A stretch of 64,000 nt of DNA from an uncultured delta proteobacterium (GCA_963815115.1 CAWFFN010000012.1:150590-214589); one strand, 5' to 3'; positions 6,985 through 52,332 are shown, numbered from the stretch's first letter. Numbers and translations are program-made. The notes: generated by a model from the sequence alone, not told the origin.

Positions 6985-9885
6985 TCAACCCTCGTGCCCG
7001 AGGCAGCCGGGCATGAGCTGGAGCTGGAGCGTATCGACCTGGTGCAGGTGCGCCACCGCGAGGTAGTCCCCCTGCGCGGCGAGCGCCGAGGTGCCGGTCG
7101 TCCCGAGCGCCAGGAGCTTGGTCAGGTTCTCCCGCACGAGCAGCTTTCCGGTCTCGTCCTGGATCGAGAGCCGTGCCGCCTGCGGCGAGAGCGTCGCGAC
7201 CCATCCGTTCCCCACGGCGATCGGTGAGCAGTCGCCCAGCCGGACTCCCCAGCCAGGCGACACCACCGCCGGGAAGCGCCGCACGATCGTTCCCGAGCCG
7301 GTATCGAGGACCTGGATCTCCTGCTCGGCCGAGGCGAGGAAGAGCAGGTCCCCGCTGGCGGCGATCCCCGTCCATGCGCCTTCCGGCAGGGGCCACGGGG
7401 GCGCGGGAGCGGCGCTCAGCCGGCCGCTGAGAGCGTCGACGGCCCACCAGGTATCGCGCGCGAACGCGGCGCATGCGTGTCCGATGCTGTCGGGCAGTGC
7501 CGGCACCTGCGTGCGGGCGGCCAGAGCCCCCTTCCCGATGCGCGTCTCGCCGCCATGACGGTCGAGCAGCCGCACCACCGGTGCGCTGCCGTCCCGGGTG
7601 TCGACGCCCATCGCGACCGGCTCCTGGACCGTGAACTTGTGCGGGCCCACGCTCACGAAGTCGTAGCTTCCGACGATCCAAACGGGGACGGCACCCTGCC
7701 CGGGCAGGCTGCCGAGAGAGAGCGCATCGTTGGCCTGATTGCTCGATCCCCTCTTCACCAGGTTCGCGCACCCCCGTGCGGCATCGAGGCTCAGGAACTG
7801 CTCGAGGGCGTTCCGTGTCTCGGGCCACCTCGAGCGCGGCGTCCGGATCTGGAGGGGAGGAACGCCTTCCTCCGCGGGCCGTTGCCCCGCGACCCCGAGC
7901 GGCGGCTCGGCCAGGCTGACCGGCGTTCCGCCCGCGGCCTGAAGTCGGTTGGCGAGCGCGAGCTCCCAGCGGGTAGGGTGCCTGAACTCCCAGACGATGG
8001 TCTCGGCATCGCCGGTCCGGATCTGCGCGTCGAGATAGGTGAGCGGCGACTTGACGTCGGAGGCATACAGCCTGAGCACGCTCGGGAGCGAGGTCTCGCG
8101 GTCGACGTTGCGGAGCGCCGAGTACAGATCGATGAACCGCTCCGGCTTGCCAGCGCCGAGCGCCGCCAGCTTGCCGTACAGGCGAAGCCCCCCCGGCGCG
8201 GTCGGATTCTCGCGCTGCTCGTCGCTGTCCACGAGCACGACCGAGCTCCCGCCCGCGATCTCGTGCCCCCAGCGCCGGCCGTCGCGCGCGCATCCGAGGC
8301 ACGTGATGCCGTCGCCGAAGCCGCTCTCGCCGAAGGGGATCTTCGTTCCGTGAGCCGGGGGCAGGGCGGCGTACAGCAGGCCCAGGCCGCCACCGGACCA
8401 TGCGGCGAGCGCCAGGACCGCACCAGCGAACACCGTGCGCCGCGCGCCGGGCGATACCTCGACGAGGGGACGCATGCGGGCGAGGACGACGCCGCCGTGC
8501 GCGGCGAGGGCGCACCATGCCAGGTCGAAGATCAGGAAGCGCCGCGCGGTGGCCGCGCTGAGGACCGGCAGGGCGAGACCGCCGAGCGCGAGCGCGATCC
8601 AGAGATACCAGGCTCTGAGCGCTCGCAGCCTGGCGAGGCCGATGAGCCCCAGGAGAACCACCGGCAGGAGGCACAAGCCTCCGTGCGCGAAACCCGGGTC
8701 CAGCGCCGTCCCCGGACCCGTTGCCGGTCGTTCCCAGAGCGCGTTCAGATCCTCCGCTCGTCCGTTCCAGAAGTACGTCCGCAGCGTCGGCGCCAGCTGT
8801 TGGCGCAGGTTGTCGTGGATGCTGCCGAGCAGCGTGCCGTAGATCACCTCGGAGCGGTTTCCGACATAGCCGGGATAGCGCGGCCACAGCGATGCCAGCG
8901 TCGGCATTCCCACGGCGAGCACGCCGGCGGCCACGAACCCCGATCCCAGGCACAGTGGAAGCACCACCCACTGGCGGCGCACGGATCCCGCCGCACGCAT
9001 CCCCGCGAGCAACGCCAGGAGCGAGAGCGGGATCGCGACCCGCGCGGCGTAGTAATGGTAGACTGACGTGCACGCGACCACACCGGCCAGGAGCGCCAGC
9101 GCGATGCTCCGCGCGCATCCCGCCGCGCGCATCCCCGCGAGCAGCGCCAGGAGCGAGAGCGGAATCGCGACCCGCGCGGCGTAGTAGTCATAGACCGACG
9201 TCCACGCGACCACACCGGCGAGGAGCGCCAGCGCGACGCTCCTGCGCGAGCCGGCGCGATGGGCGAGCCAGAGGACGAGGAGCGTGTGGGGAACCGCCGC
9301 GATCTGCAGCCCGCCGAGGCGTGCCCAGGTGATCTGCAACGGGGAGACGGCGACCAGTCCCGCGAACGCGAGGCCGAACGCCGGCGACACGACCGCCCGC
9401 CCGACGAGCCAGGCCAGCACGACGGCGAGGATCCCGCACAGGCTCCCGATGTACTGCGGCAGCTCGAGCGACGGTCCCAGGGTGGCGACGGCGAGCGCGT
9501 TCACCGGCACCATGACGGCGGATTCCTGGGGCCAGTTCACCTGCGTCGAGGAGAGCACCGTCCTCCAGCGGTCCCACAGGCCGCCCTTCACGAGCAGTGT
9601 GGCGGCGTCCACCACGCCCGCTTCGGGGAAGAACAAGCGCGGCTGGTGCTCGGAGGTCGCGAAGAGGGTCCGCAGGAGTGCGGCGAGCACGACGATGCCG
9701 AGGAGGAGGCCCAGCTCCTGGCGCCGCGGGATGGGAGGGATCGCGGGGACCGGCCGGCGGCGCCCCCGGATCGACGCCACGACGATCGCGAGCACGATCA
9801 GGGCCCCGAGCACGATGAGCCCTCGCTCTGCGCGGCCCGAGAGCTCGAGCCAGCGCAGCGCGCCGACCGGGACAGGCGGCTGCAC
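6985..9885 (-). CDS. GT-C fold membrane glycosyltransferase-like protein (GT39/ArnT/PMT-like N-terminus, large periplasmic C-terminal domain), paralog 1 (966 aa)
   Basis: Multi-TM N-terminal half resembles the ArnT/PMT lipid-carrier-dependent glycosyltransferase architecture. About 500 aa of hydrophilic C-terminus. About 90% identical to the downstream paralog. Confidence 0.65.
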   Translation of the reverse strand: MQPPVPVGALRWLELSGRAERGLIVLGALIVLAIVVASIRGRRRPVPAIPPIPRRQELGLLLGIVVLAALLRTLFATSEHQPRLFFPEAGVVDAATLLVKGGLWDRWRTVLSSTQVNWPQESAVMVPVNALAVATLGPSLELPQYIGSLCGILAVVLAWLVGRAVVSPAFGLAFAGLVAVSPLQITWARLGGLQIAAVPHTLLVLWLAHRAGSRRSVALALLAGVVAWTSVYDYYAARVAIPLSLLALLAGMRAAGCARSIALALLAGVVACTSVYHYYAARVAIPLSLLALLAGMRAAGSVRRQWVVLPLCLGSGFVAAGVLAVGMPTLASLWPRYPGYVGNRSEVIYGTLLGSIHDNLRQQLAPTLRTYFWNGRAEDLNALWERPATGPGTALDPGFAHGGLCLLPVVLLGLIGLARLRALRAWYLWIALALGGLALPVLSAATARRFLIFDLAWCALAAHGGVVLARMRPLVEVSPGARRTVFAGAVLALAAWSGGGLGLLYAALPPAHGTKIPFGESGFGDGITCLGCARDGRRWGHEIAGGSSVVLVDSDEQRENPTAPGGLRLYGKLAALGAGKPERFIDLYSALRNVDRETSLPSVLRLYASDVKSPLTYLDAQIRTGDAETIVWEFRHPTRWELALANRLQAAGGTPVSLAEPPLGVAGQRPAEEGVPPLQIRTPRSRWPETRNALEQFLSLDAARGCANLVKRGSSNQANDALSLGSLPGQGAVPVWIVGSYDFVSVGPHKFTVQEPVAMGVDTRDGSAPVVRLLDRHGGETRIGKGALAARTQVPALPDSIGHACAAFARDTWWAVDALSGRLSAAPAPPWPLPEGAWTGIAASGDLLFLASAEQEIQVLDTGSGTIVRRFPAVVSPGWGVRLGDCSPIAVGNGWVATLSPQAARLSIQDETGKLLVRENLTKLLALGTTGTSALAAQGDYLAVAHLHQVDTLQLQLMPGCLGHEG
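8995..9260. repeat. In-frame tandem duplication (~130 bp x2) inside paralog 1
   Basis: Two adjacent near-identical DNA units starting ccccgcgagcARcgccaggagcgagagcgg at ~9001 and ~9133. They encode the repeated 43-aa segment ALALLAGVVAWTSVYDYYAARVAIPLSLLALLAGMRAAG and account for the 966 versus 923 aa length difference. Confidence 0.8.
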
Positions 9886-10013
9886 GTCGTGTCTTGTGCG
9901 CGCCGGCGCCGAATGCTGTCAAGAAGGAAGCGGAACGTTCATGCTCGCGCACGGCGTGCCACCGCGAGCAGGCTCGCTCCGACGTTCGGCGCGGAGAGTC
10001 ACGCCCGCGTGCG

Positions 10014-10146
10014 AACGCCGTTTCCTCTCAGGTCGGAGAGCCTCCTCGGGTTGCAAGGGCTGCGGCGCGTCGCCGTCGACGACGATCTCCGCCGCCTCGG
10101 GCTCCGGGTGCGTCCCGCGGCGGAGAGCCTCGCTTCGGTGGATTGA
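10014..10146 (+). pseudogene. Duplicated 3' remnant of the NAD-epimerase gene (encodes the last ~44 aa, ...PFPLRSESLLGLQGLRRVAVDDDLRRLGLRVRPAAESLASVD)
   Basis: Nearly identical to 6838-6969. No upstream coding body. Confidence 0.7.
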
Positions 10147-10160
10147 AGGGCGGAGCCGGC

Positions 10161-12932
10161 TCAACCCTCGTGCCCGAGGCAGCCGGGCATGAACTGGAGC
10201 TCGAGCGCATCGACCCGGTTCCGGTGCCCGACGGCGAGGTAGTTCCCGTCAGCGGCGAGCGCGGAGGTGCCCGTCGTTCCGAGCGACAGCAGCTTCGTCA
10301 GGTCCTCGCGCACGAGCAGCTTTCCGGTCTCGTCCTGGATCGAGAGCCGTGCCGCCTGCGGCGAGAGCGTCGCGACCCATCCGTTCCCCACGGCGATCGG
10401 TGAGCAGTCGCCCAGCCGGACTCCCCAGCCAGGCGACACCACCGCCGGGAAGCGCCGCACGATCGTTCCCGAGCCGGTATCGAGGACCTGGATCTCCTGC
10501 TCGGCCGAGGCGAGGAAGAGCAGGTCCCCGCTGGCGGCGATGCCCGTCCATGCGCCTTGCGGGAGGGGCCACTGCGGGGCGGGAGCGGCGCTCAGCCGGC
10601 CGCTGAGAGCGTTGACGACCCACCAGGTGCCGTGCGCGAACGCGGCGCACGCGTGTCCGATGCTGCCGGGCAGTGCCGGCACCTGCGTGCGGGCGGCGGG
10701 GATCCCCTTCCCGATGCGCATCTCGCCCCCATGGCGGTCGAGCAAACGCACCACGGGCGTGCTGCCGTCCCGGGTCTCGACGCCCATCGCGACCGGTTCC
10801 TGGACCGTGAGCTTCAGCTTGCCCAGGCTCACGAAGTCGTAACTTCCGACGATCCACGAGGGGTTGGCACCCTGCCCGGGCAGGCTGCCGAGCACCGAGA
10901 GCGCATCGTTGTCCTGATCGCTCGATCCCCGCTTCACCAGGGTCGCACAGCCGCGATCGGCATCGAGGCTCATGAACTGCTCGAGAGCCGCGCGTGCCTC
11001 GGGCCACCTCGAGCGCGGCGTCCGGATCTGGAGGGGAGGAACGCCTTCCTCCGCCGGTCGTTCCGCCCCGACCCCGAGCGGCGGCTCGGCCAGGCTGACG
11101 GGCGTTCCGCCCGCTGCCTGGAGCCGATTGGCGAGCTCCAGCTCCCACCGCGTCGGATCCCTGAACTCCCACACGACGGTCTCGGCATCGCCGGCCCGGA
11201 TCTGCGCGTCGAGATACGTGAGGGGCGACGCGACATCGTCGGCGTAGAGCCGGCGCACGCTCGGGAGCGCAGTCTCGCGGTCGACGTTGCGCAGCGCCGA
11301 GTACAGATCGATGAACCGCTCCGGCCTGCCGGCGCCGAGCGCCGCCAGCGTGCCGTAGAGACGAAGCCCCCCCGGCGAGGTGGGATTCTCGCGCTGCTCG
11401 TCGCTGTCCACCAGCACGACCGAGCTGCCGCTCGCGATCTCGTGCCGCCAGCGCCGGCCGTCGCGCGCACATCCCAGGCACGTCAGCCCGTCGCCGAAAC
11501 CGCTCTCACCGAAGGGGATCCTCGTTCCGTGGGCCGGCGGCAGGGCGGCGCACAGCAGACCCAGGCCGCCTCCGGACCACGCGGCGAGCGCAAGGACCAC
11601 GCCCGCGAACAGCGTGCGCCGCGCGCCGGGCGATGCCTCGACGAGGGGACGCATGCGGGCGAGAACGACGACGCCGTGCGCAGCGAGGGCGCACCATGCC
11701 AGGTCGAAGATCAGAAAGCGCCGCGCGGTGGGCGCGCTGAGGACCGGCAGGGCGAGGCCTCCGAGCGCGAGCGCGATCCAGAGATACCAGGCTCTGAGGG
11801 CTCCAAGCCTGGCGAGGCCAACGAGCCCCAGAAGGGCAACCGGAAGGAGACACAATCCGCCGTGGGCGAACCCGGCGTCGAGCGCCGTCCCGGGACCGGT
11901 GGCCGGCAGCTTCCAGAGCGCGTTCAGGTCTTCCGCTCGCCCGGTCCAGAAGTACGTTCGAACCGCCGGGACCAGCTGCTGTTTCAGGTTGTCGTGGACA
12001 CTGCGGAGCACCTCGCCGTACGTCTCCTCGGAGCGGTTGCCGACATAGCCGGCATAGCGCGGCCAGAGCGATGCCAGCGCCGGCATTCCCCCGGCGAGGA
12101 CGCCGGCGACCGCGAAGCCCGATCCCAGGCACAGTGGAAGCACCAGCCACTGGCGGCGCACGGATCCCGCCGCGCGCATCCCCGCGAGCAGCGCCAGGAG
12201 CGAGAGCGGAATCGCGACCCGCGCGGCGTAGTAGTCATAGACCGACGTCCACGCGACCACACCGGCGAGGAGCGCCAGCGCGACGCTCCTGCGCGAGCCG
12301 GCGCGATGGGCGAGCCAGAGGACGAGGAGCGTGTGGGGAACCGCCGCGATCTGCAGCCCGCCGAGGCGTGCCCAGGTGATCTGCAACGGGGAGACGGCGA
12401 CCAGTCCCGCGAACGCGAGGCCGAACGCCGGCGACACGACCGCCCGCCCGACGAGCCAGGCCAGCACGACGGCGAGGATCCCGCACAGGCTCCCGATGTA
12501 CTGCGGCAGCTCGAGCGACGGTCCCAGGGTGGCGACGGCGAGCGCGTTCACCGGCACCATGACGGCGGATTCCTGGGGCCAGTTCACCTGGGTCGAGGAG
12601 AGCGCGACCTTCCAGCGGGTCCACAGGCCGCCCTTCACGAGCAGTGTGGCGGCGTCCACCACGCCCGCTTCGGGGAAGAACAAGTGCGGCTGCTGCTCGG
12701 AGGTCGCGAAGAGGGTCCGCAGGAGTGCGGCGAGCACGACGATGCCGAGGAGGAGGCCCAGCTCCTGGCGCCGCGGGATGGGAGGGATCGCGGGGACCGG
12801 CCGGCGGCGCCCCCGGATCGACGCCACGACGATCGCGAGCACGATCAGGGCCCCGAGCACGATGAGCCCCCGCTCTGCGCGGCCCGAGAGCTCGAGCCAG
12901 CGCAACGCGGCGACCGGGACAGGCGGCTGCAC
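10161..12932 (-). CDS. GT-C fold membrane glycosyltransferase-like protein, paralog 2 (923 aa)
   Basis: Same architecture as 6985-9885. Lacks the internal 43-aa duplication. Confidence 0.65.
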   Translation of the reverse strand: MQPPVPVAALRWLELSGRAERGLIVLGALIVLAIVVASIRGRRRPVPAIPPIPRRQELGLLLGIVVLAALLRTLFATSEQQPHLFFPEAGVVDAATLLVKGGLWTRWKVALSSTQVNWPQESAVMVPVNALAVATLGPSLELPQYIGSLCGILAVVLAWLVGRAVVSPAFGLAFAGLVAVSPLQITWARLGGLQIAAVPHTLLVLWLAHRAGSRRSVALALLAGVVAWTSVYDYYAARVAIPLSLLALLAGMRAAGSVRRQWLVLPLCLGSGFAVAGVLAGGMPALASLWPRYAGYVGNRSEETYGEVLRSVHDNLKQQLVPAVRTYFWTGRAEDLNALWKLPATGPGTALDAGFAHGGLCLLPVALLGLVGLARLGALRAWYLWIALALGGLALPVLSAPTARRFLIFDLAWCALAAHGVVVLARMRPLVEASPGARRTLFAGVVLALAAWSGGGLGLLCAALPPAHGTRIPFGESGFGDGLTCLGCARDGRRWRHEIASGSSVVLVDSDEQRENPTSPGGLRLYGTLAALGAGRPERFIDLYSALRNVDRETALPSVRRLYADDVASPLTYLDAQIRAGDAETVVWEFRDPTRWELELANRLQAAGGTPVSLAEPPLGVGAERPAEEGVPPLQIRTPRSRWPEARAALEQFMSLDADRGCATLVKRGSSDQDNDALSVLGSLPGQGANPSWIVGSYDFVSLGKLKLTVQEPVAMGVETRDGSTPVVRLLDRHGGEMRIGKGIPAARTQVPALPGSIGHACAAFAHGTWWVVNALSGRLSAAPAPQWPLPQGAWTGIAASGDLLFLASAEQEIQVLDTGSGTIVRRFPAVVSPGWGVRLGDCSPIAVGNGWVATLSPQAARLSIQDETGKLLVREDLTKLLSLGTTGTSALAADGNYLAVGHRNRVDALELQFMPGCLGHEG

Positions 12933-13052: not shown

Positions 13053-13472
13053 TCAGGGGGCGCCGCTCTTCCCGCCGTCGCCGAGCAGCCGCGCTCGCGT
13101 CCCCGCGACGTCGACGAGCGGCTGCTTGCGCAGGCGCTCGACCTCCGCCGCGGTGTACGGGGTGAAGTCCGCGGGCACGTGGGCGTGATCGAAGCGCTCC
13201 AGCAGCCAGTTGAGCACCGCGGCCAGCGCCGCGTCGTCGAGCGGCGCCTGCGCGACGCCGGGCACGCGCGCGAGGTAGTCGCGGCCGCCCGGCGCGGCGA
13301 GGAAGCGCGCGACCGACCCCTGCAGCGCGGGAACGCTGCCGGGCGTGCTCGTGCCGTCGGCGCGGTGGCAGCCCTCGCAGTTGAGCGTGTAGTCGAGCGC
13401 CGGTCCGCTCGCCGCGCCGGCGAGCGGCGCGATCCCGACGACGGCCGCCAGCGCGGCGCCAGCGCGCCACAT
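13053..13472 (-). CDS. Monoheme c-type cytochrome (signal peptide plus CEGCH heme-binding motif)
   Basis: CXXCH motif after a signal peptide (MWRAGAALAAVVGIAPLAGAAS). Lies 4 nt downstream of mauA on the same strand. Confidence 0.7.
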   Translation of the reverse strand: MWRAGAALAAVVGIAPLAGAASGPALDYTLNCEGCHRADGTSTPGSVPALQGSVARFLAAPGGRDYLARVPGVAQAPLDDAALAAVLNWLLERFDHAHVPADFTPYTAAEVERLRKQPLVDVAGTRARLLGDGGKSGAP

Positions 13473-13475
13473 CGG

Positions 13476-14025
13476 CTACGACTTCGTCGCCACGCCCAGC
13501 ACGACTGCGACCGAGCAGTTGACGGCGCGGCTCTTGGTACCGAAGCACCACAGCAGGTCGTTGTTCCTGGAGGTGTAGTACACGGGCCGCTCGCCCTCGG
13601 TACGCGAGCAGCGGCATCGCATGCAGAGGGACTGCCCGCAGCAGTCGTTGTACGAGATGATGTAGTCCTTGCCGTCGCCGGGATGGCGGCACGTGCCGAT
13701 CCAGGTGACCGGCGACATCTCCGTCCCCGGCGGGCAGGTGTTCTGCGAGCCGCCGCAGCACGAGCACAGGAACCCGTCGATGGCGCAGTGGCGCCAGTAG
13801 CTGCAGCTCTGGGGATCGCCCGCCGGGGCCTCGAGGCGGGCATCGTCGGGCGCCGGGACCCGCGACTCGTCATCCGCCGCGCGTGCCACCGGCAGCAGCG
13901 GCAGTGCCGCGGCGCCGACCAGCGCCGCACCGGCGCGCGCGAGCACGCTCCGGCGCGACGTGCGCCGCGCGAGCGCGCGGGCGCTCCGTTCCACCAGGCG
14001 ATCCATCCAGCCGCGCCCGTCGTTC
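13476..14025 (-). CDS. mauA: Methylamine/aralkylamine dehydrogenase light (small, TTQ-bearing) subunit
   Basis: Strong match to MauA signature blocks: SYWRHCAIDGFLCSCCGG...CPPGT...YNDCCG...ERPVYY...LLWCFG. Tat-like leader RRSVLARAGAALVGAAALPL. Start overlaps the mauD stop. Confidence 0.85.
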
Positions 14026-14644
14026 ATCGCCGTGCGACCTCCGTGCGCTCCTCGACGCCGCGCAGGAACTCCTGGATCGAGGCGACGCCCCGCTCCTGCG
14101 CCTCGAAGAGGCTCTCCAGGTGCTCGCGCGTGTTCACCAGACCCTTGGCGCGCACCGTGCCGGAGCCGTCGACGAGCGCGGCATAGGGCAGCTTTCCCAC
14201 CTGCCATCGCATGCCGAGCTCCGGCGACAGCAGATACGGGAACGCATCCAGGCGCTCGGCACGCACGAACGCCTCGTGCTCCGCGCGCGGACCGTCACTC
14301 GCGAGCACGAGGTCGAGCCACGCCGTCTCGCGCCGGGCGATGCCGCGCAGCGCAGGCAGGAGCGTCTTGCAGACCGGGCAGGTGGGCGACAGGAAGAAGA
14401 GGAGGGTGCTCCGGCCGTCGTCGCGCGGGGCGCCGATCTCGTGCAGGCGGGCGCCGAGATCCTCCGCCTGGATCACGGGCGCCGCCGCGCCGACCGTCGG
14501 ACCGCGTCCGAGGAGCAGCGCGCCTGCCGGCGCCACGCGCTCATAGAGGACGCCGATCTGGCGGGTGAGGGCCACGACCACGCAGGCCAGCACCACGACG
14601 GCGATCCACAGCACGATCGTCGAGACCACGAGCGCCTGCGTCAC
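14024..14644 (-). CDS. mauD: MauD, thioredoxin-like methylamine utilisation protein
   Basis: N-terminal TM helix plus thioredoxin-fold with CPVC motif (LLFFLSPTCPVCKTLLPAL). GTG start overlapping the mauE stop (GTGA). Only the C-terminal 207 codons of the 888-aa ORF 14024-16690 are protein-like. Confidence 0.75.
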   Translation of the reverse strand: MTQALVVSTIVLWIAVVVLACVVVALTRQIGVLYERVAPAGALLLGRGPTVGAAAPVIQAEDLGARLHEIGAPRDDGRSTLLFFLSPTCPVCKTLLPALRGIARRETAWLDLVLASDGPRAEHEAFVRAERLDAFPYLLSPELGMRWQVGKLPYAALVDGSGTVRAKGLVNTREHLESLFEAQERGVASIQEFLRGVEERTEVARR

Positions 14645-15177
14645 GCGGCCTCCTGCAGGCGCGCGAGCGCGGGACCCGCGGCGAGGAGGTGATCGCTGGC
14701 CCTCCAGCAGGCCGCGAACGCCGCGGTCGCGGCCACGACCGTGAGCGGGTCGATCCACACCATCGGACGGGGCTGCACCGGGGCGAGAGCGGCGAGCGCG
14801 ACCGCCACCGCCACCAGCGCCAGGTTGCGCACCACCAGCCAGCCGCTGATCGGACGCCGCATCGCCGGTCCGGTGCAGCCGCAGTCGAGATGGCGCCGCC
14901 CGCGCGCGAGGTTGACGGCGATGGCGCCGGCGTACAGCGCGAGCAGGGCGGCTGCGCCGGCGAGTCCCCACCGGCGCGCGACGAGCAGGGCGGCGACGAC
15001 GGCCCCCTCGGCCACCACGAGCACCGTCGCGCCGGGCGAGACGAGCGGACGCGGCAGCAGCCGGTAGTCCTCGACCGTCGCCCGGAAGCGCGCGACGTCG
15101 CGCACCTTGTGCCCCGTCGCGGACAGGAAGAGGAGCGCGAGCGCGACACGCACGGTCACGTCGACGACCGGGTCCAT
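14641..15177 (-). CDS. mauE: MauE, methylamine utilisation membrane protein
   Basis: ~178 aa polytopic membrane protein in the position between mauB and mauD expected from known mau clusters (order mauB-mauE-mauD-mauA). Confidence 0.75.
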   Translation of the reverse strand: MDPVVDVTVRVALALLFLSATGHKVRDVARFRATVEDYRLLPRPLVSPGATVLVVAEGAVVAALLVARRWGLAGAAALLALYAGAIAVNLARGRRHLDCGCTGPAMRRPISGWLVVRNLALVAVAVALAALAPVQPRPMVWIDPLTVVAATAAFAACWRASDHLLAAGPALARLQEAA

Positions 15178-15180
15178 GGC

Positions 15181-16419
15181 TCAGGGCGCCACCAGCAGGC
15201 CGCCCGCGAGCCCCGGCTCCGAGACCTCCCGCAGGACCTTGCCCGTCATGGCATCGTGGATCGTGAGCGTCGGCGGCAGCGAGGCGGAGGCGACCAGCAC
15301 CGGATGCTCGTCCTGCGTCACCAGGATGCGCTCGATTCCCGGATTGGGCACGACCTTGTCGAGGAGCCAGCGCTCGATGCGGCCCGTCGTCCGGCTGCGG
15401 TCGATCGAGGCCTGCAGGCCGACGAAGCTGACCACCGGGTTCAGCATCGAGACGCGCTGCACCCGCGTTCGCGTTCCCACGTCGTACACCCAGACCTCGG
15501 TGCCCGGCGCCTTGTGCGAGTCGGGGCCGCCCTGGTGCACCAGGACATAGAGGCGTCCCGAGGCCTGGTGCAGGGCGAGAAGCTGACCGCCGCCGATGCG
15601 CCACGAGGCAGAGCGATCCTGGTCGTCGAGGAGCGGCCAGGTGTCGCCGAAGCGCACTGTCTCGCCCGACACGTCGACGGGATGGACGACCCCGTCGAAG
15701 GACACGAAGAACCACGTGCCGCCGCGCCGGACCGCCTTCTCGGTGATCGGGTCCTTCTGGGCGTCGAAGAAGGGCTCGGTGCGTGCCGGTGTTGCCGTGC
15801 CGCTCGCCTCGTCGAGAGTCACCGTGAGCGCCCCGCCGTTGGCGCACAACATGAGGAAGCGCCGCGGACCGGCGCCGTAGACGAGGCTGCACCCCGGGGT
15901 GGGCACCTCGGTGACGAAGCGCCGCGCCTGCACGTCGACGATCGAGAGCGAGGTGACGGGAGTCAGGTTGAACACCGCGAGGAAGCGGCCGTCGTCGGAC
16001 AGCGCGCTGGACGCGTTGCCCGGGTAGTACTCGGCGCGCCGGGGCGGGATCTGGATCTCCTGGAGCGGCGCCAGGGTGCGCGCGTCGTAGACCGTCACCA
16101 CGTCCGTGCGATCGCCGCGCACGCCGCGGCTGTAGTAGGTCTCGGAGAGGTAGATCTCGCGGTGGTCGGGCGAGAAGAGGGGTAGGATCGCGAAGCCGAC
16201 GCCGGGCGTGCCCGACGTGATCTGGCCGAGCAGCTCGCCCTTCCCGCCGTCGAAGAGGGCCGTGCGGTGCAGGATGATGTCGCTCAGCCAGAACCAGTGC
16301 GGCCCGGGTCGTTCGGGCAAGGTCGCCGCCTTGCCGATGGTCTCCGGCTCCGGGGCCGCGCCCGCGAGCCCGACGGCGAAGCACCCGGCGAGGAGTGCCA
16401 CCGGAAGGCGGCGTCGCAT
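15181..16419 (-). CDS. mauB: Methylamine/aralkylamine dehydrogenase heavy (large, beta-propeller) subunit
   Basis: ~410 aa secreted protein (MRRRLPVALLAGCFAVGLAGAAP) with beta-propeller-like repeat content. Position immediately upstream of mauE. Confidence 0.8.
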   Translation of the reverse strand: MRRRLPVALLAGCFAVGLAGAAPEPETIGKAATLPERPGPHWFWLSDIILHRTALFDGGKGELLGQITSGTPGVGFAILPLFSPDHREIYLSETYYSRGVRGDRTDVVTVYDARTLAPLQEIQIPPRRAEYYPGNASSALSDDGRFLAVFNLTPVTSLSIVDVQARRFVTEVPTPGCSLVYGAGPRRFLMLCANGGALTVTLDEASGTATPARTEPFFDAQKDPITEKAVRRGGTWFFVSFDGVVHPVDVSGETVRFGDTWPLLDDQDRSASWRIGGGQLLALHQASGRLYVLVHQGGPDSHKAPGTEVWVYDVGTRTRVQRVSMLNPVVSFVGLQASIDRSRTTGRIERWLLDKVVPNPGIERILVTQDEHPVLVASASLPPTLTIHDAMTGKVLREVSEPGLAGGLLVAP

Positions 16420-16541
16420 GGCCGTCCGTCTCACCGAGGACAGTCCGAGAGGCACGAGGCGGGCGTATAGCATGCACGACCCGTCGCGGAACACGGCCGA
16501 CCTTGACCGGCCTCGTACGGCATCCACATACTCCGATCGCG

Positions 16542-17168
16542 GTGCGCTGGGAGACCTGGAGCCTGTTTCTCGTCACCGAGACGCTTCTCTGCCTCACGCC
16601 GGGGCCGGCGGTGCTGTTCGTGCTGTCGCAGGGGCTGGGCCGGGGCACGGCGGCGTCGATCCGGGCGAGTCTCGGCATCCTCGCCGGCAACGCGCTCTAC
16701 TTCCTGCTCTCCGCGACGGGGCTGGGAGCGATCCTCGTCGCCTCGTACGACCTCTTCTTCTGCATCAAGTGGGCCGGCGCAGCCTACCTGGTCTGGCTCG
16801 GGCTGCGCGCGCTCCGCGCCACGGGCACCGTGCTGGCGGTGAAGCCGGCGACGGGTGCAGCCGAGTCCCGTCACGTGTTCGCACGCGGCTTCGCCGTCCA
16901 GGCAGCGAACCCGAAGGCCATCGTCTTCTTCACCGCGCTGCTCCCGCAGTTCATCGATCCCGCGGGGAGCGTCCCGCTCCAGGTGGGCATACTCGCGCTC
17001 ACCAGCATCGCGGTCGAGTTCGTGGTCCTGGCGACCTACGGCATCTTCGCCGGTCGCGTCTCGCGGCTCGCGGCGGAGCCCCGGGTCGCGGCATTCCTCG
17101 AGCGCGCCGCCGGCGTGCTGCTGATGGGCGCCGGACTGCGGATGGCCGCGCTGCGACGGGCGGGGTGA
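16542..17168 (+). CDS. LysE/RhtB-family amino-acid exporter
   Basis: TPGPAVLFVLSQG...ANPKAIVFFTALLPQF are hallmarks of the LysE family. GTG start inferred; the ORF frame is open from 16395. Confidence 0.7.
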   Translation: MRWETWSLFLVTETLLCLTPGPAVLFVLSQGLGRGTAASIRASLGILAGNALYFLLSATGLGAILVASYDLFFCIKWAGAAYLVWLGLRALRATGTVLAVKPATGAAESRHVFARGFAVQAANPKAIVFFTALLPQFIDPAGSVPLQVGILALTSIAVEFVVLATYGIFAGRVSRLAAEPRVAAFLERAAGVLLMGAGLRMAALRRAG

Positions 17169-17175
17169 CCGGCGC

Positions 17176-17994
17176 TCAGCCCGCGGCACGCGCGCGCTCG
17201 CGCGCAGCGGCGATGACGGCGGGGGGCACCGGGTCGAAGCGAGCCGCGCCCCGGCGAAACAGGCCGGGCGCGAGCAGGCGGAACCACCAGGCGAGTCGCA
17301 GCGCGCCCGGCACCCAGACCTCGTGGCGGCGGTGCTCGATGGCGCGCAGGATCGCTCCCGACACCGCGCCGGGCGGCAGCTTTCGGCCCCGGTAGGCCGT
17401 CGGCTCGTCGGTCTTGTGCCAGATCTCGGTGTCGATGGGCCCGACGTGAACGACCGTGGCGTGAATGCCCGAGCCCGCCAGATCGAGCCACAGCCCCTCG
17501 GTGAATCCGGTGAGCGCGAACTTGGACGCCGCGTAGACGGTCTCGCGTGGCGGCGGGAGCTTCCCCGCCAACGACGAGACGTTGACGATCCAGCCCTCGC
17601 CCCGGCGGAGCATCGCCGGCAGCGCAGCGAGCGTGAGGAACGCGGAGGCGAGGAAGTTGACCCGCAGCACGTACTCCACCTCCTCGGCATCGAGGTGGTA
17701 GAGCTGCTTGTGCTTCGACACGCCGGCGTTGTTCACGACGATGTCGATGCGTCCGAAGCGCGCGACGGCACGTGCCGCCATGCCCTCGACGAAGGCGCGC
17801 TCGGCGACGTCGCCGGCGAGCACCTCGACGGGCACGCCGTGCGCGCCGCACTCGGCCGCGGCCTCCTCGAGCAGCTCGCGGCGGCGCGCCGAGAGCACCA
17901 GCGTCGTGCCGCGCGCCGCCAGATCGAGCGCCACCCGGCGGCCGATGCCGGAGGATGCCCCGGTGACGATGGCGACGCGGCCGCGGTAGTCCAT
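17176..17994 (-). CDS. SDR-family oxidoreductase
   Basis: VAIVTGASSGIG Rossmann motif, NNAG, and YAASKFAL catalytic region. Confidence 0.8.
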   Translation of the reverse strand: MDYRGRVAIVTGASSGIGRRVALDLAARGTTLVLSARRRELLEEAAAECGAHGVPVEVLAGDVAERAFVEGMAARAVARFGRIDIVVNNAGVSKHKQLYHLDAEEVEYVLRVNFLASAFLTLAALPAMLRRGEGWIVNVSSLAGKLPPPRETVYAASKFALTGFTEGLWLDLAGSGIHATVVHVGPIDTEIWHKTDEPTAYRGRKLPPGAVSGAILRAIEHRRHEVWVPGALRLAWWFRLLAPGLFRRGAARFDPVPPAVIAAARERARAAG

Positions 17995-18000
17995 GGTCAC

Positions 18001-18181: not shown

Positions 18182-19738
18182 TCATCGCGTTGAACTCTCG
18201 CTTCTCGATCGCAGCGCCTGCTTGTCCACCTTGTACATGGCCGTCACGGGAAGGTCCGCCAGCAGCGTCAGCCCGTCGGGCCGCTTGAAGCTGGCCAGCT
18301 CGGCCCCGACGAAGGCGCGCAGCTCGGCGAGCGTCGGGGGCTCGGCGGGCTCGCGCGGCACGACGAAGGCCCAGCCGACCTCGCCGAAGACCGCGTCCGG
18401 CACGCCGACGATGGCGGCGCGCGCCACCTTCGGGTGCCTGGCGAGCAGGTCCTCGATCTCGTTCGGGTAGACGTTGAAGCCGCCGCGGATGAACATCTCG
18501 CTCTGGCGTCCGCGCAGGTGGAGATAGCCGTCGCCGTCCAGGAAACCGAGGTCGCCGGTGCGGATCCAGCCCTCCGGGTCGATCACCGCGGCCGTCGCCT
18601 CCGGATCGTTCCAGTAGCCGCGCATGGTCGCCGGCGAGCGCACCTGGACTCCGCCCACCGAGCCGGCCGGCAGCGCCCCGCCGTCTTCGCCCGCGATGCG
18701 CATCTCGACACCGGGGGTGGGCTTGCCGACGGTGGTGGCGAGACGCTCGGGCGGATCGTCCGGCAGCGACGCGGTGGCGATGCCCACCTCGGTGGACGAG
18801 TAGCGCACGCTCACCTCGACGCGCAGCTCCTCCTGCACCCGCCGGATCAAGTCGGGAGACGAGGGCGCGCCGCCGAGGAGGACCTGGCGCAGCGAGCGCA
18901 GGTCGCGCCGCGGGCGGTCGGGATGGTCGAGGAGCATGATTGCCTGGGTCGGAATCGCGCCGATGTGGGTGAGCCGCTCGCGTTCGATGGTCTCGAGGAC
19001 GGCGGCCGGATCGAAGGCGTCGTGGATCAGGGCGGCGCCGCGGTTGCCGATCTGGACGGCGATGCGCGCCATGGTCCCGACGTGCGCGAAGGAGAGCCCC
19101 GCGGCGAGGTGCAGGGGAGCGCGCCCGACCCGCCCCGTGTGCCGCCGCGCCTCGATCTCGGCCAGCGCGAGCAGGCTCGCATGGGCGTACCAGGCGCCCT
19201 TGGGCGCGCCGGTCGTCCCGCTGGTGAAGACGATCGCCGCCGGCGCCCCGGCCGGCACGTCGCGTTCCGCCACCGCCGCCGCCGGGCCCGCGATCCGCTG
19301 CACGGTCTCGCGCGTGCCGTTCCGCACGTCGTCCGCCCGGAGCCACAGGACATCGTAGCGCGCCGGCAGCGCATCGACCATGGTGCGGAAGTCGGCGTCG
19401 TGCCAGCGCTCGACGGCGAGAAGCAGGCGCGGGCGTGCCCGCGCCAGGATGTGGCCGATCTCGGTGCGCCGGTAGCGCGCGTTGATGCCGGCGGTGACGG
19501 CGCCGAGCCGCGCCGCGGCCAGGTAGGCGACGAGGTAGAGCGGCGTCGAGGGGAGGAGCAGTGCCACCACGTCGCCCGCCTGCACGCCCCGCGCGGCGAG
19601 GCCGGCAGCGAGGCGGTCGGCGAGCGCGTCCCAGTCGCGGTAGGTGAGGCGCTCGGTGCGATAGCGGAACGCCTCCGCGTCGGGCGTCTCGCGGGCGGAA
19701 CTGCGCAGCAGGGCGCCGAGGGTTGGATGGGGGGCCAC
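18182..19738 (-). CDS. AMP-dependent synthetase/ligase (acyl-CoA synthetase family)
   Basis: TSGTTGAPKG AMP-binding motif and C-terminal GDLGFLDGDGYLHLRGRQSEMFIRGGFNVYPNEIE. Confidence 0.8.
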   Translation of the reverse strand: MAPHPTLGALLRSSARETPDAEAFRYRTERLTYRDWDALADRLAAGLAARGVQAGDVVALLLPSTPLYLVAYLAAARLGAVTAGINARYRRTEIGHILARARPRLLLAVERWHDADFRTMVDALPARYDVLWLRADDVRNGTRETVQRIAGPAAAVAERDVPAGAPAAIVFTSGTTGAPKGAWYAHASLLALAEIEARRHTGRVGRAPLHLAAGLSFAHVGTMARIAVQIGNRGAALIHDAFDPAAVLETIERERLTHIGAIPTQAIMLLDHPDRPRRDLRSLRQVLLGGAPSSPDLIRRVQEELRVEVSVRYSSTEVGIATASLPDDPPERLATTVGKPTPGVEMRIAGEDGGALPAGSVGGVQVRSPATMRGYWNDPEATAAVIDPEGWIRTGDLGFLDGDGYLHLRGRQSEMFIRGGFNVYPNEIEDLLARHPKVARAAIVGVPDAVFGEVGWAFVVPREPAEPPTLAELRAFVGAELASFKRPDGLTLLADLPVTAMYKVDKQALRSRSESSTR

Positions 19739-19932: not shown

Positions 19933-21570
19933 ATGGTCGAAACGAAGCGGAAAGGAGCGGCGGCCCGAAGGCCATGCCTCCCGGCGTCGGTCGCGGCGGG
20001 CATCCTGGTGCTCGCGGCGGGCGCCGCGTGGGCGCAGGGGCTCACCGGCATGCTCCCCTTCTTTCCCCCGGGGGAGGAAGTCACGGACGCGGTGAAGGCG
20101 CACTACCACTTCAAGGTGGTCGCCAATCAGAGCCCCGGCGGAAAGATCCTCTTCGGATCGAATCGATTCTACGGAACGGGCCCGGAGACCTACCTCACCG
20201 AGAACAACTTCTACAGCAACGGGCTGCTCTACGCCGACGAGGTCTGCACGAGCTGGCCGCTCGAGGGAATGCCGACCTTTGCGGTGACGACCCTGCGGGT
20301 GGCCGTGCCCGACTACAACCTGCACGGGAAGACCGGCGCCAGGACCTTCGCGCCGGCGGACTTCCCGCGTCAGAGCTACAACATCGACACGGCCACCGGC
20401 GCGCCCAAGACCGACATGATCTCGCAGTTCGACCTGACCGGCCGGGAAGGCACGGTGGAGATCAGCCGTGGAGACATCGTGACGGACCACACGGGATGGA
20501 AGTGCTCGGGTCCGCTCGATGCGAGCGTCTACCGGCAGTGGAACGTGGTCGTCACCGTCGACGGGGTCTCGTATCCCGTGGCGTTCGCCCTCCCGGACGA
20601 CGGCGCCCACTACTTCACACCGTACGAGATACTCAACTTCTATACCGAGTTCTTCCAGCATCCCGGGCTCTTCAAGGTGCACTTCTGGAAGCTCGAGGTG
20701 CAACGCGAGAATTCCACCACGTGGATCCCGTTGCGCTGGTTCCGCGTGCACAACGATGCACCCACCAACACCGAGTGGGGCGTTCGGATCACCACCGACG
20801 ACGGCATCCGGGTGCTCGAGGTGAGCAACGACGCTCCTGCCGATTTCTTCGGTGACGGGGCGACCTTCATGCTTCCAACACCCGTGTGCGGTGACGGAAT
20901 CGTGGACGGTAGCGAGCAGTGCGACGATGGCAACACGCTGGACGGCGACTGCTGTTCCTCGACCTGCCAGTTCGACCCGGCGGGTTCGGCGTGTACCGAC
21001 GGCGTCATCTGCACCGAGGACGCATGCGACGGGGCCGGGACATGCACGCATCACGTGCCCCCGGTGGCGGGCTGCGACGGACCGCAAGCGACGAAGGCCA
21101 CGCTGACCTTGAAGAAGAATGCGAGGAGTGCGACCGCGGACGCGCTCGAATGGAAATGGGTGAGCGGTGGGCCCTTCGACGCTGGCGCGCTCGGCACACC
21201 GGCGACCACGACGGACCTGACTCTCTGCGTGTTCGATCAGACCGGCAAAGCGGTCGCCGCGACCGCGCCCGCGGGCGGCCAGTGCGCCGGGAAGCCATGC
21301 TGGCGCACGAGCGCGACGACCGTGAAGTACTCGGACAAGGCCCTCACTCCCGACGGCCTTCAGAAGCTGCAGGGCAAGAGTGGAGCGGCCGGGCGGGGAA
21401 AGCTCGAGGTCAAGGGGAAGGGTGCCAGCCTCCGGATGCCGTCGCTCGGGCTCACGACGCCGGTCACCGCGCGCCTTCTGCGTGGCGACGGCCCGGGATG
21501 CTGGGAGGCGACCTTCGCGTCCCACGTGCAGAAGAACCTTCCGACCGAGTTCAGGGCCAAATCGGAGTGA
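19933..21570 (+). CDS. Secreted protein with C-terminal Myxococcus cysteine-rich repeat
   Basis: Good SD (AAGGAGAGG) 5 nt before the ATG. Signal peptide present. Motif CGDGIVDGSEQCDDGNTLDGDCCSSTCQFD matches the Myxococcus cysteine-rich repeat. Confidence 0.7.
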   Translation: MVETKRKGAAARRPCLPASVAAGILVLAAGAAWAQGLTGMLPFFPPGEEVTDAVKAHYHFKVVANQSPGGKILFGSNRFYGTGPETYLTENNFYSNGLLYADEVCTSWPLEGMPTFAVTTLRVAVPDYNLHGKTGARTFAPADFPRQSYNIDTATGAPKTDMISQFDLTGREGTVEISRGDIVTDHTGWKCSGPLDASVYRQWNVVVTVDGVSYPVAFALPDDGAHYFTPYEILNFYTEFFQHPGLFKVHFWKLEVQRENSTTWIPLRWFRVHNDAPTNTEWGVRITTDDGIRVLEVSNDAPADFFGDGATFMLPTPVCGDGIVDGSEQCDDGNTLDGDCCSSTCQFDPAGSACTDGVICTEDACDGAGTCTHHVPPVAGCDGPQATKATLTLKKNARSATADALEWKWVSGGPFDAGALGTPATTTDLTLCVFDQTGKAVAATAPAGGQCAGKPCWRTSATTVKYSDKALTPDGLQKLQGKSGAAGRGKLEVKGKGASLRMPSLGLTTPVTARLLRGDGPGCWEATFASHVQKNLPTEFRAKSE

Positions 21571-26523: not shown

Positions 26524-27335
26524 GCGATGCGCTCGATCGGCTGACCGTCGGACACTACATGCTGCGGAACTGGTCGCTCGAGGAGGACGTGCGCCACTTG
26601 GGGCGCCTCGGCTTCCACTCCATCAGCCTCGCCAGCACCAAGCTGGCGGCGTACGGGCCGGCGCGTGCCGTGCGGCTGCTGCGGGGGTCGGGACTGCGGG
26701 TGGCGCATCTCGGCTCCTACGGGCGCTTCGGTACCGAGGCCCGGACGATCAGGCGCGGCCTCGACGAGGTACGCCGTGCGCTCGGCTGGCTGCACGCGCT
26801 CGACGGCGACGTGCTGGTCGTGATCAGCGGCGGGCGCGGCGGCGCGCCGTGGGAGCAGGCGGCGCGCGCCTATGCCGACGCGTACGCCGCGCTGCTTCCC
26901 GAGGCGACCGCGGCCGGCGTGCGGCTCGCCATCGAGGTGATCCACCCGTTGCGGCAGGACCTGTCCTTCATCAGCACGCTCGACGACGCGCGCGAGATCG
27001 CCGTGCAAGCAGGCCGCCGGGGCGGCTACGTGCTGGACTTCTGGCACTCCGGCTGGGAGCGCGGGCTGCTCGCCGCCATCCGCCGCGACGCCGCGCGACG
27101 CATCCACGCGGTTCAGGTTTCCGACTACAAGCGCCTGACGATGCGCACGCTCGACCGCGCCCTGCTCGGCAAGGGCATCCTTCCGCTCGGGGCGATGGTC
27201 CGCGCGCTCGAGGAGGGCGGCTACCGGGGCTGGTACGAGGCCGAGATCATCAGCGACGACGTCGAGCGGATGGGGTACGAGCGCGTGCTCAGACACACGC
27301 GCAGCGCGATGGCGCGCCTGCTGTCCGCTGCCTAG
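26520..27335 (+). CDS. Sugar-phosphate isomerase/epimerase (xylose-isomerase-like TIM barrel)
   Basis: ATGA-coupled. AP-endonuclease-2/TIM-barrel-like pattern (HLGSYG...LAIEVIHP...DFWH). Confidence 0.65.
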   Translation: MSDALDRLTVGHYMLRNWSLEEDVRHLGRLGFHSISLASTKLAAYGPARAVRLLRGSGLRVAHLGSYGRFGTEARTIRRGLDEVRRALGWLHALDGDVLVVISGGRGGAPWEQAARAYADAYAALLPEATAAGVRLAIEVIHPLRQDLSFISTLDDAREIAVQAGRRGGYVLDFWHSGWERGLLAAIRRDAARRIHAVQVSDYKRLTMRTLDRALLGKGILPLGAMVRALEEGGYRGWYEAEIISDDVERMGYERVLRHTRSAMARLLSAA

Positions 27336-27829
27336 GGCGCGCAGGCGGAGCTGGTCTCCAGCTCGCAGCGCGACGTGCAGCAGTCGCCGTCCAGGGTGTT
27401 GCCGTCGTCGCAGTCCTCGCCGGCGTCGCGATGACCGTCGCCACACGTCGGGATGCGACGCGCGTGGAAATGCAGGGCGCCCGTGCTCGCACGCACCACG
27501 CCGCTCATGACGTCGCAGGCGGCGTCGATCCGGGCCCGGACTCGCCGCGAGTCGGTGCCGCACGAGGCCCACGCGGTGCGCAGCCTGGTCCCGTCCCGGC
27601 CCTCGTGCACGACCGTCATGGCCGCGGGCGCGCAGCCCGTCGCCAGGAGCACGATGCCGCCGCGCAGCTCGATCAGACCTGCCGGGCCACCTATCGGGAC
27701 ATCAGGGCCGCCATCGACCACGAATCGCCCGAGAGCGCAGGGGCGCCCGAAGCGGGCGGTGAGGAGCGGCGACAGCGCCGCGGCCACGTAGAGCGCGGCC
27801 AGCGCCCGCAGGATCCGTGCCCGCGACAT
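27332..27829 (-). CDS. Small secreted protein with Myxococcus cysteine-rich repeat
   Basis: Signal-like N-terminus (MSRARILRALAALYVAAALSPLL). C-terminal CGDGHRDAGEDCDDGNTLDGDCCTSRCE is a second copy of the repeat class seen in the 19933 gene. Confidence 0.55.
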   Translation of the reverse strand: MSRARILRALAALYVAAALSPLLTARFGRPCALGRFVVDGGPDVPIGGPAGLIELRGGIVLLATGCAPAAMTVVHEGRDGTRLRTAWASCGTDSRRVRARIDAACDVMSGVVRASTGALHFHARRIPTCGDGHRDAGEDCDDGNTLDGDCCTSRCELETSSACAP

Positions 27830-36419: not shown

Positions 36420-36484
36420 GTCCGCAGCTGGCGTCAGCCCTCCACTCCGTTCAGGCCGCCTCGGTTGATCGTGGCGAGGCCGCG

Positions 36485-45977: not shown

Positions 45978-45983
45978 GGGAGA

Positions 45984-48730: not shown

Positions 48731-48784
48731 CCCCGCCGACTGGTTCCTAGCACCGACGGGTCCGGGCCGCCACCGCGGCACGCG

Positions 48785-50865: not shown

Positions 50866-50879
50866 GCGGGAGGGCCTAG

Positions 50880-52320
<1,441 letters not shown>

Positions 52321-52332
52321 GGCGCGAGCTTC

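Follow-up and report, generated by a model that had tools for sequence, protein, structure and literature searches.

A probable aau-type amine dehydrogenase operon in an uncultured delta proteobacterium, with a cytochrome that appears to have lost its methionine loop

Introduction

How an amine dehydrogenase built around tryptophan tryptophylquinone (TTQ) could mature its cofactor and hand on its electrons, when genes that accompany such enzymes in canonical clusters are missing, is the question raised by a five-gene operon in an uncultured delta proteobacterium. The operon lies at 13053-16419 on a 64,000-nucleotide stretch of DNA (GCA_963815115.1, CAWFFN010000012.1:150590-214589) that is referred to below, at its full length, as the window. 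Its genes specify a heavy subunit, a MauE-type membrane protein, MauD, a light subunit and a monohaem c-type cytochrome, here called CytX. An earlier note, made from the DNA sequence alone, had described the locus as an unusual and minimal TTQ amine dehydrogenase cluster, without mauG, mauF or amicyanin.

Comparisons with aromatic amine dehydrogenase (AADH), the aau-encoded enzyme, and with methylamine dehydrogenase (MADH), the mau-encoded one, lead to a different description. To judge from its sequence, the operon very probably encodes a periplasmic TTQ-dependent primary-amine dehydrogenase of the aau type, and not a stripped-down mau cluster; it would be one more such enzyme, found here in an uncultured lineage of high guanine-plus-cytosine (G+C) content related to Binatia/Myxococcota. 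The absence of mauG, mauF and amicyanin is the norm for the large and widespread clade to which it belongs, and we know of no explanation of how AADH-type enzymes form TTQ without MauG. The question is thereby sharpened, as the only conserved extra gene specifies a cytochrome in which the sixth haem ligand has apparently been lost.

The operon and its genes

Because the window is approximately 72% G+C, raw lists of open reading frames (ORFs) are full of spurious frames; the gene set used here is a codon-usage gene call on the 64-kb window, comprising 57 called genes. The operon, from its first gene to its last, and the region upstream of it are as follows.

15181-16419 (alternative bound 16401), minus strand: heavy (alpha) subunit, aauB/mauB-like, 412 aa (PF06433, 137 bits)
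14641-15177, minus strand: MauE-type membrane protein with a DCGC motif, 178 aa (PF07291, 98 bits)
14024-14644, minus strand: MauD, a membrane-anchored periplasmic thioredoxin-like protein with a CPVC motif, 206 aa (TIGR02661 equivalog, 204.6 bits, cutoff 188.6)
13476-14027, minus strand: light (beta) subunit, aauA/mauA-like, 183 aa (PF02975, 162 bits)
13053-13472, minus strand: CytX, an orf-2-type monohaem c-type cytochrome with a signal peptide and a single CEGCH, 139 aa (PF00034, 24 bits, cutoff 21.3)
16420-16541, no strand: intergenic stretch between the heavy-chain gene and a divergent LysE-family exporter gene, as defined by the gene calls
16542-17168, plus strand: the divergent LysE-family exporter gene, upstream of the operon (PF01810, 131 bits)

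These Pfam and NCBIfam assignments agree with the gene identities, the order B-E-D-A and the minus-strand placement given in the earlier note, and the coupled monohaem cytochrome that it reported is real, having one CEGCH and a gene that adjoins mauA. Junctions within the cluster are tight, with 3-nt spacers between B and E and between A and the cytochrome, and 4-nt overlaps between E and D and between D and A; they are therefore consistent with one translationally coupled operon. The cytochrome had been placed 4 nt downstream of mauA, and here the coupling stands but the distance does not, the junction TAG-CCG-ATG being a 3-nt spacer. The gene boundaries are supported by exact products that are already on record, as identical 412-aa MauB, 183-aa MauA and 139-aa cytochrome proteins are recorded in NCBI/ENA from one 908-kb contig.

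The N-terminus of the heavy chain, MRRRLPVALLAGCFAVGLAGAAPEP, resembles a signal peptide, and the light chain has a twin-arginine leader (TSRRSVL) followed by a mature part with 14 cysteines. The MauE and MauD genes stand between the heavy- and light-chain genes, as is characteristic of the TTQ superfamily, and the position of MauE between the subunit genes is kept in relatives; a disulfide-forming role has been proposed for MauE (bioRxiv 10.64898/2026.03.05.709764). The promoter of the operon presumably lies within 16420-16541, and the sole sigma-70-like match in that stretch (16503-16532, plus strand) faces lysE.

Relationship to AADH and MADH

The reading given in the earlier note depended on conservation of the tryptophans that form TTQ, and both of them, W109 and W160, are invariant, together with the catalytic D128, in an alignment with AADH and MADH light chains. 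Twelve of the 14 light-chain cysteines are also invariant in this alignment, the other two being C91 and C138. A CSCCGG motif and an extra cysteine, Cys135, are common to the window light chain and AADH and are not found in the MADH of Paracoccus denitrificans; identity is 50.6% to AauA of Alcaligenes faecalis and 44.5% to P. denitrificans MauA. For the heavy chain, the margin by identity is small (34.1% to AADH vs 34.0% to MADH). Against TIGR02658, the MADH heavy-chain equivalog, it scores 138.9, and since this is far under the cutoff of 454, the heavy chain is not an MADH equivalog. The light chain scores 179.5 against TIGR02659, the corresponding light-chain equivalog, for which the cutoff is 196.85.

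Solved structures give a similar order. Matches of the heavy chain to AADH and MADH heavy chains in the PDB range from E = 1e-50 to 1e-35, led by the large subunit of A. faecalis AADH (2h3x/2agl, 173 bits); MADH heavy chains reach 125 bits. For the mature core of the light chain, the score is 150 bits with AADH and 131-132 bits with mature MADH chains, and A. faecalis AADH is thus the best solved-structure match for both. The top light-chain match overall is the full-length MADH precursor of P. versutus (3c75_L, 170 bits), which scores highest because its alignment takes in the leader too.

A phylogenetic comparison of methylamine and aralkylamine dehydrogenases had been proposed as a check. 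When this was run for the light chain, as a quick neighbour-joining tree of 102 light-chain cores without support values, three MauG-type MADHs stood apart from the 99 other sequences, which include both the window light chain and A. faecalis AADH. Within those 99, all are linked to CytX except five, namely four loci with B and A only and one truncated contig. In this tree, the window light chain groups with AADH in the CytX-linked clade. Taken together, the sequence would put the enzyme nearer to AADH than to MADH, without fixing its specificity.

By homology to solved AADH and MADH, the heavy subunit would be a beta-propeller and the enzyme a periplasmic alpha2-beta2 complex. Its light subunit would be exported via the twin-arginine leader, and the 14 cysteines would be paired with the help of membrane-bound MauE and thioredoxin-like MauD. 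Trp109 would be dioxygenated and cross-linked to Trp160, yielding the TTQ that the mature enzyme is predicted to carry. A primary amine would then form a Schiff base on the quinone and Asp128 would abstract a proton, after which aldehyde and ammonia would be released and two electrons would leave singly to a periplasmic carrier.

Absence of MauG, MauF, MauJ and cupredoxins

Searches by tblastn with P. denitrificans MauG, MauF, MauJ and amicyanin gave zero matches in the 64-kb window, as did a search of the same 64 kb with an azurin query. Of the 57 called genes, 42, among them every gene at 3367-32671 around the operon, were scanned with Pfam and showed neither PF03150 nor a cupredoxin, and CytX is the sole called gene in the window that bears a CXXCH. 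With the same queries, two canonical control clusters (L009 and L094) yield MauG, MauF, MauJ and amicyanin, and a third (L095) yields MauF, MauJ and MauG without amicyanin. The local absence of MauG, MauF and a cupredoxin noted earlier is thus borne out by tblastn, by the azurin query, by the Pfam scans and by the CXXCH count. Nor do mauG, mauF and amicyanin belong to the same operon immediately outside the window, as the earlier note had allowed that they might, since the operon lies 13 kb from one end of the window and 47 kb from the other.

Distribution of the layout

A scan of 185,579 species genomes returned more than 600 light-chain matches, a protein collection contained 4317 light-chain homologues, and metagenome assemblies (JGI, ENA and Logan) are rich in the family. 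The 80 loci nearest to the window light chain were surveyed, with MauG, MauF, MauJ and amicyanin sought within 10 kb. These loci come from Binatia, Myxococcota, organisms named 'delta proteobacterium', many Gammaproteobacteria, Spirochaetes and one Planctomycetota metagenome-assembled genome (MAG). CytX is present in 75 of the 80 and the intact order B-E-D-A-(extra cytochrome)-CytX in 54, and MauG, MauF, MauJ and amicyanin were found in none of them within that distance. In a scan of the loci that did not take in L094 and L095, no MauG-sized di-haem ORF was seen outside the control L009.

The B-E-D-A-cytochrome layout is likewise annotated on plasmids of Cupriavidus pinatubonensis, Novosphingobium EMRT-2, Haematobacter, Paracoccus SMMA_5 and Chimaeribacter, and on a plasmid of P. 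aeruginosa RW109 the annotation reads aauB-mauE-mauD-aauA-cycA-cycA; all the inspected plasmids with an annotated cluster of this type have it, and they have no MauG, MauF or amicyanin there. The five-gene module is also kept in four metagenomic relatives whose light chains are 78-83% identical to that of the window and which present four unrelated flanking contexts. Throughout the AADH clade, which includes the biochemically characterized A. faecalis enzyme, the rule is that B-E-D-A is accompanied by an orf-2-type cytochrome and that MauG, MauF, MauJ and amicyanin are absent. The terms unusual and minimal, applied to the cluster earlier, accordingly do not suit a layout found in the A. faecalis aau cluster, on annotated plasmids and in most of the loci surveyed. 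Within the species genomes, the closest light chains are those of a 'delta proteobacterium' MAG (84%) and of Candidatus Binatia MAGs (83% and 79%), and the description of the host as Myxococcota-like is uncertain.

Several points weigh against the aau-type assignment or narrow its reach, the lack of support values in the light-chain tree among them. The label 'aromatic' cannot be transferred to the substrate, because the heavy chain is approximately 34% identical to both AADH and MADH. No aldehyde dehydrogenase gene is adjacent to the operon, unlike in A. faecalis and Cupriavidus, the nearest being approximately 28 kb off, and a promoter and terminator scan recognized none for the operon. The 80 loci were picked by similarity to the window, so their counts cannot be read as the frequency of this layout across TTQ enzymes as a whole. 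Finally, the gene search within the strain spans the 64-kb window, and a distant mauG or a gene for azurin or another cupredoxin may lie elsewhere in the genome.

Variation around the core was seen in several loci. A second heavy/light pair, without a MauE, MauD or CytX of its own, occurs in several genomes, either in tandem with a full cluster or on its own: the order is B-A-B-E-D-A-CytX in L027, L036, L043 and L074 and B-A-B-A-CytX in L067, and a B-A pair stands alone in L014, L077, L081 and L083. This suggests that paralogous enzymes have MauE, MauD and CytX as common accessory components. Small di-haem ORFs of approximately 190-225 aa (stop-to-stop), c4-like by size and haem-motif spacing, follow CytX in L055, L062, L087 and L088 and also occur in L014, L029 and L053, and a separate monohaem cytochrome is encoded upstream of the heavy-chain gene in L004 and on the P0042 contig. 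The redox partners around the conserved core thus vary between loci.

All-against-all clustering of flanking ORFs from 90 loci, blurred by long spurious ORFs in high-G+C DNA, brought out no further conserved partner. The recurrent flanking families were TonB-dependent receptors (28 of the 90 loci), aldehyde dehydrogenases (18), AMP-ligases (17) and short-chain dehydrogenases/reductases (SDRs; 14), along with a possible transcriptional-regulator family in 15 loci, assigned without a domain scan. Their recurrence was judged, without a control, to be close to chance for common families, and besides B, E, D, A and CytX no gene family occurs in more than 28 of the 90 loci.

Comparison with the aau and mau clusters

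The aau cluster of A. faecalis, reportedly set out by Chistoserdov in 2001, is said to consist of orf-1, aauB, aauE, aauD, aauA, orf-2, orf-3, orf-4 and hemE; the locus as retrieved here (L091) reads aldehyde dehydrogenase, orf1, aauB, aauE, aauD, aauA, orf2, AraC, orf4 and hemE. Like the window, it has the order heavy chain, MauE, MauD, light chain, monohaem cytochrome, and it is without MauG, MauF, MauJ and amicyanin. Its AauA has the same length as the window light chain, 183 aa, with W109, W160 and D128 under the same numbering and the same 14-cysteine pattern. Differences are also evident. Identity is only 51% for the light chain and 34% for the heavy chain, and the window operon has beside it no counterpart of the aldehyde dehydrogenase, orf-1 channel (Phenol_MetA_deg) and AraC regulator that flank the A. 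faecalis genes. A. faecalis is a betaproteobacterium, whereas the window host belongs to a high-G+C lineage related to Binatia/Myxococcota MAGs. Aralkylamine dehydrogenases act on aromatic primary amines (phenylethylamine, tyramine, tryptamine). The electron acceptor of the A. faecalis enzyme is azurin, and no azurin gene was found in the 64-kb window. Structures of AADH-azurin complexes exist, 2h47 and 2iaa being among the heavy-chain PDB matches.

The canonical mau cluster, which encodes MADH (EC 1.4.9.1) in P. denitrificans and Methylobacterium, is arranged mauR-F-B-E-D-A-C(amicyanin)-J-G-M-N. It has in common with the window the B-E-D-A core, the TTQ tryptophans and the catalytic aspartate, and it would also share the subunit folds and folding assisted by MauE and MauD. 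In contrast, the window has no MauF, amicyanin, MauJ, MauG or MauM/N; the MADH light chain has 12 cysteines compared with 14 in the window, and MADH clusters have no CytX.

CytX

The haem motif of CytX is C32-E-G-C35-H36, its single CXXCH, and there is no methionine after Met1. Cytochrome c552 of Thermus thermophilus (1c52), which donates electrons to terminal oxidases, is matched by the family profile with E = 3e-23 in two pieces, corresponding to 1c52 residues 10-49 and 70-128. The two cytochromes share the CXXCH, a GGREYL segment, a C-terminal helix (FxPYTxxEVxxLR) and a haem-propionate arginine and, by prediction, a fold. In between, c552 residues 50-69, which include the axial Met69, are reduced to Pro-Gly in CytX, where the segment reads V70-P71-G72 in the window protein. 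The haem iron of c552 is liganded by His15 and the distal Met69, and an M69A mutant is five-coordinate (PMC10635480).

The deletion is a property of the family. Eighty-eight sequences were collected as CytX, 86 of which are CytX-type, the other two (L041_1 and L072_1) being Met-bearing and Cyt1-type. The VPG is situated exactly 7 residues past GRxY in 84 of the 88 and in a shifted register in two more, such that the deletion is present in 86 of 88; the domain is wholly without methionine in 20 of the 88, window CytX included. A. faecalis orf-2 (166 aa) is 41% identical to window CytX, scores 132 bits against the hidden Markov model of the CytX family and has the same VPG deletion. Invariant or nearly invariant residues are Y28, C32, G34, C35, H36, P48, R64, V70-P71-G72, D80, A84, N88, E110, R115 and R126. 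No column of conserved Met, His, Lys or Cys follows the haem histidine in the 88-sequence family, and no substitute ligand for Met69 is conserved. His96 and His98 were considered as substitutes and rejected as not conserved, as were Tyr28 and Tyr66, at which Tyr alternates with Phe, and Asn88, which c552 has too.

An AlphaFold2 model of CytX has a mean predicted local distance difference test score (pLDDT) of 73, with values above 85 at residues 51-130 and below 55 at residues 1-50. With this model as the Foldseek query, the PDB matches are c552 structures only (template modelling scores, 0.62-0.66). By profile and model, then, CytX is a predicted Thermus c552-like fold from which the Met-ligand loop has been lost, and its haem has apparently been left without a sixth ligand.

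A Met-bearing c552-like paralogue, in which the loop is kept as YNGxMP, is encoded in at least 10 of the 80 genome loci as well as on Cupriavidus, Pseudomonas, Haematobacter and Paracoccus plasmids, and its gene is always placed between aauA and CytX. CytX itself occurs in 15 of 72,556 plasmids, each time within approximately 1.3 kb downstream of a light-chain gene. Another 16 plasmids with a light-chain gene have no CytX, and all 15 of these that are among the matches listed are annotated as carrying amicyanin-type mauA.

Role of CytX and alternative readings

CytX is most likely the dedicated redox partner of the operon, and there is about an even chance that it is the acceptor or the first carrier of electrons from the enzyme. 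A redox-partner role is favoured because, in the subclade of the window, the operon specifies no redox protein other than CytX; an electron-acceptor role as such is plausible but unproven.

A second reading, which we hold only tentatively, is that CytX is not the acceptor but the catalyst of TTQ maturation in MauG-less clusters. A five-coordinate c-type haem would, with O2 or H2O2, oxidize the precursor light chain through the second hydroxylation, the cross-link and the oxidation, as MauG does, and the electrons of the mature enzyme would go to azurin, a canonical c552-like cytochrome or a cytochrome c4. The loss of the Met69-bearing loop without any other conserved ligand column favours it, as does the five-coordinate haem of c552 when Met69 is absent (PMC10635480). 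So does the distribution on plasmids, where CytX occurs only just downstream of light-chain genes and is missing from the 16 other light-chain plasmids. More conventional acceptors are at hand in some clusters, in the form of the Met-bearing c552-like cytochrome (seen in four plasmid clusters and in at least 10 of the 80 genome loci) and of the c4-type di-haem cytochrome that follows CytX in several of them. The sharing of B, E, D, A and CytX, and of no further family in more than 28 of the 90 loci, points the same way. So does the entry for aralkylamine dehydrogenase, EC 1.4.9.2, in which the listed acceptor is azurin and no cytochrome is given (PMC9547800).

Other observations speak against a maturation role. 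The complementary distribution of CytX and canonical clusters fits the replacement of amicyanin by CytX equally well, and it cannot separate the two roles because amicyanin and MauG vanish together. The operons of the window and of its closest relatives have CytX as their sole redox protein, the classic place of an acceptor. GRxY, D80, N88, E110, R115 and R126 also occur in c552, and because most of the invariant residues of CytX do so, they would be structural and not a new catalytic set. These genomes may have a MauG homologue at another location, and the AlphaFold2 model is poor at the haem site, where pLDDT is below 55 for residues 1-50.

That CytX is a single-haem functional replacement for the di-haem MauG, whether instead of or besides being an acceptor, is possible but not likely. 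MauG (PF03150) has two haems and approximately 387 aa, whereas CytX has one haem and 139 aa, and there is no relationship of sequence or fold between them. Only a functional analogy would be possible, CytX being a haem protein beside the light-chain gene that is present where MauG is absent. If true, CytX would be the missing oxidant of TTQ biogenesis in the AADH-type clade. The probability that remains beyond acceptor and maturation falls to other roles of CytX.

As for the enzyme itself, it is improbable that the operon encodes a genuine MADH belonging to a split mau system, with mauG, mauF and the amicyanin gene at another place in the genome. Pfam does name both subunits as methylamine dehydrogenase chains, MauD passes its equivalog cutoff, and the gene search covers the 64-kb window and not the whole genome. 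Both subunits nevertheless fall under their MADH equivalog cutoffs (138.9/454 and 179.5/196.85), the heavy chain and the mature light-chain core are closer to AADH, and the tree places the light chain in the CytX-linked clade and apart from MauG-type MADH. In addition, canonical clusters keep MauG, MauF, MauJ and amicyanin adjacent, and 0 of the 80 nearest loci have them within 10 kb.

A decaying or silent, functionless remnant is very unlikely: no promoter or terminator was recognized and no aldehyde-handling gene is adjacent, but the five ORFs are intact, translationally coupled and of coding-type codon usage, the catalytic and cofactor residues are invariant, and purifying selection is indicated because the light chain has 76-84% identity with its counterparts in relatives where the five-gene module persists between unrelated flanks. 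An aau-type dehydrogenase with CytX as a candidate redox partner is accordingly the reading that is retained here.

Genomic surroundings

Beyond the operon and the LysE-family gene, the following features were noted in the window.

6985-9885 and 10161-12932, minus strand: tandem paralogues of 966 aa and 923 aa, 85% identical
17176-18000, minus strand: SDR, upstream of the operon beyond the LysE gene
18182-19738, minus strand: AMP-dependent acyl-CoA ligase, likewise upstream beyond the LysE gene
20008-21570 and 27332-27829: DUF4215-repeat proteins
33003-36419 and 36503-39661, plus strand: two adjacent proteins of 1138 and 1052 aa with an N-terminal AAA_16, the second also with TPR_12
44529-53823: amine-catabolism-like group, with aldehyde dehydrogenase (510 bits), class-III aminotransferase, Peptidase_C26 and a DAO-type flavoprotein
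60789-63998, minus strand: possible haem biosynthesis genes, for an Amino_oxidase-family flavoprotein and ferrochelatase (PF00762, 298 bits)

The two large membrane-protein paralogues at 6985-12932 were considered as part of the operon and rejected, being absent from the clusters of relatives and separated from the cytochrome gene by a gap of 120 nt. They have a weak N-terminal match to PMT_2 (glycosyltransferase-like) and a hydrophobic look, with no Pfam match over the rest, and they look like a recent tandem duplication; the first copy (6985-9885) contains an internal duplication of approximately 42 aa. The SDR and AMP-ligase families recur in 14-17 of the 90 related loci, which was judged, without a control, to be not clearly above chance.

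The DUF4215 repeat is cysteine-rich and common in Myxococcota-like lineages. The DUF4215 proteins fit the taxonomic guess made earlier, and the closest light-chain relatives are from Binatia MAGs. The two proteins at 33003-39661 may, from their domains, be a tandem pair of STAND-type regulators. The amine-catabolism-like group is approximately 28-37 kb from the operon; its Peptidase_C26 member can be read as a PuuD-like gamma-glutamyl hydrolase, and the group might process the aldehyde product or other amines. Close to the end of the window, the Amino_oxidase-family flavoprotein is a possible protoporphyrinogen oxidase (hemY), and two ORFs at the very end are, from their N-terminal sequences, possibly hemE. 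In A. faecalis (L091) and Haematobacter (L092), the aau-type cluster is likewise followed, a few genes further downstream, by hemE or hemC.

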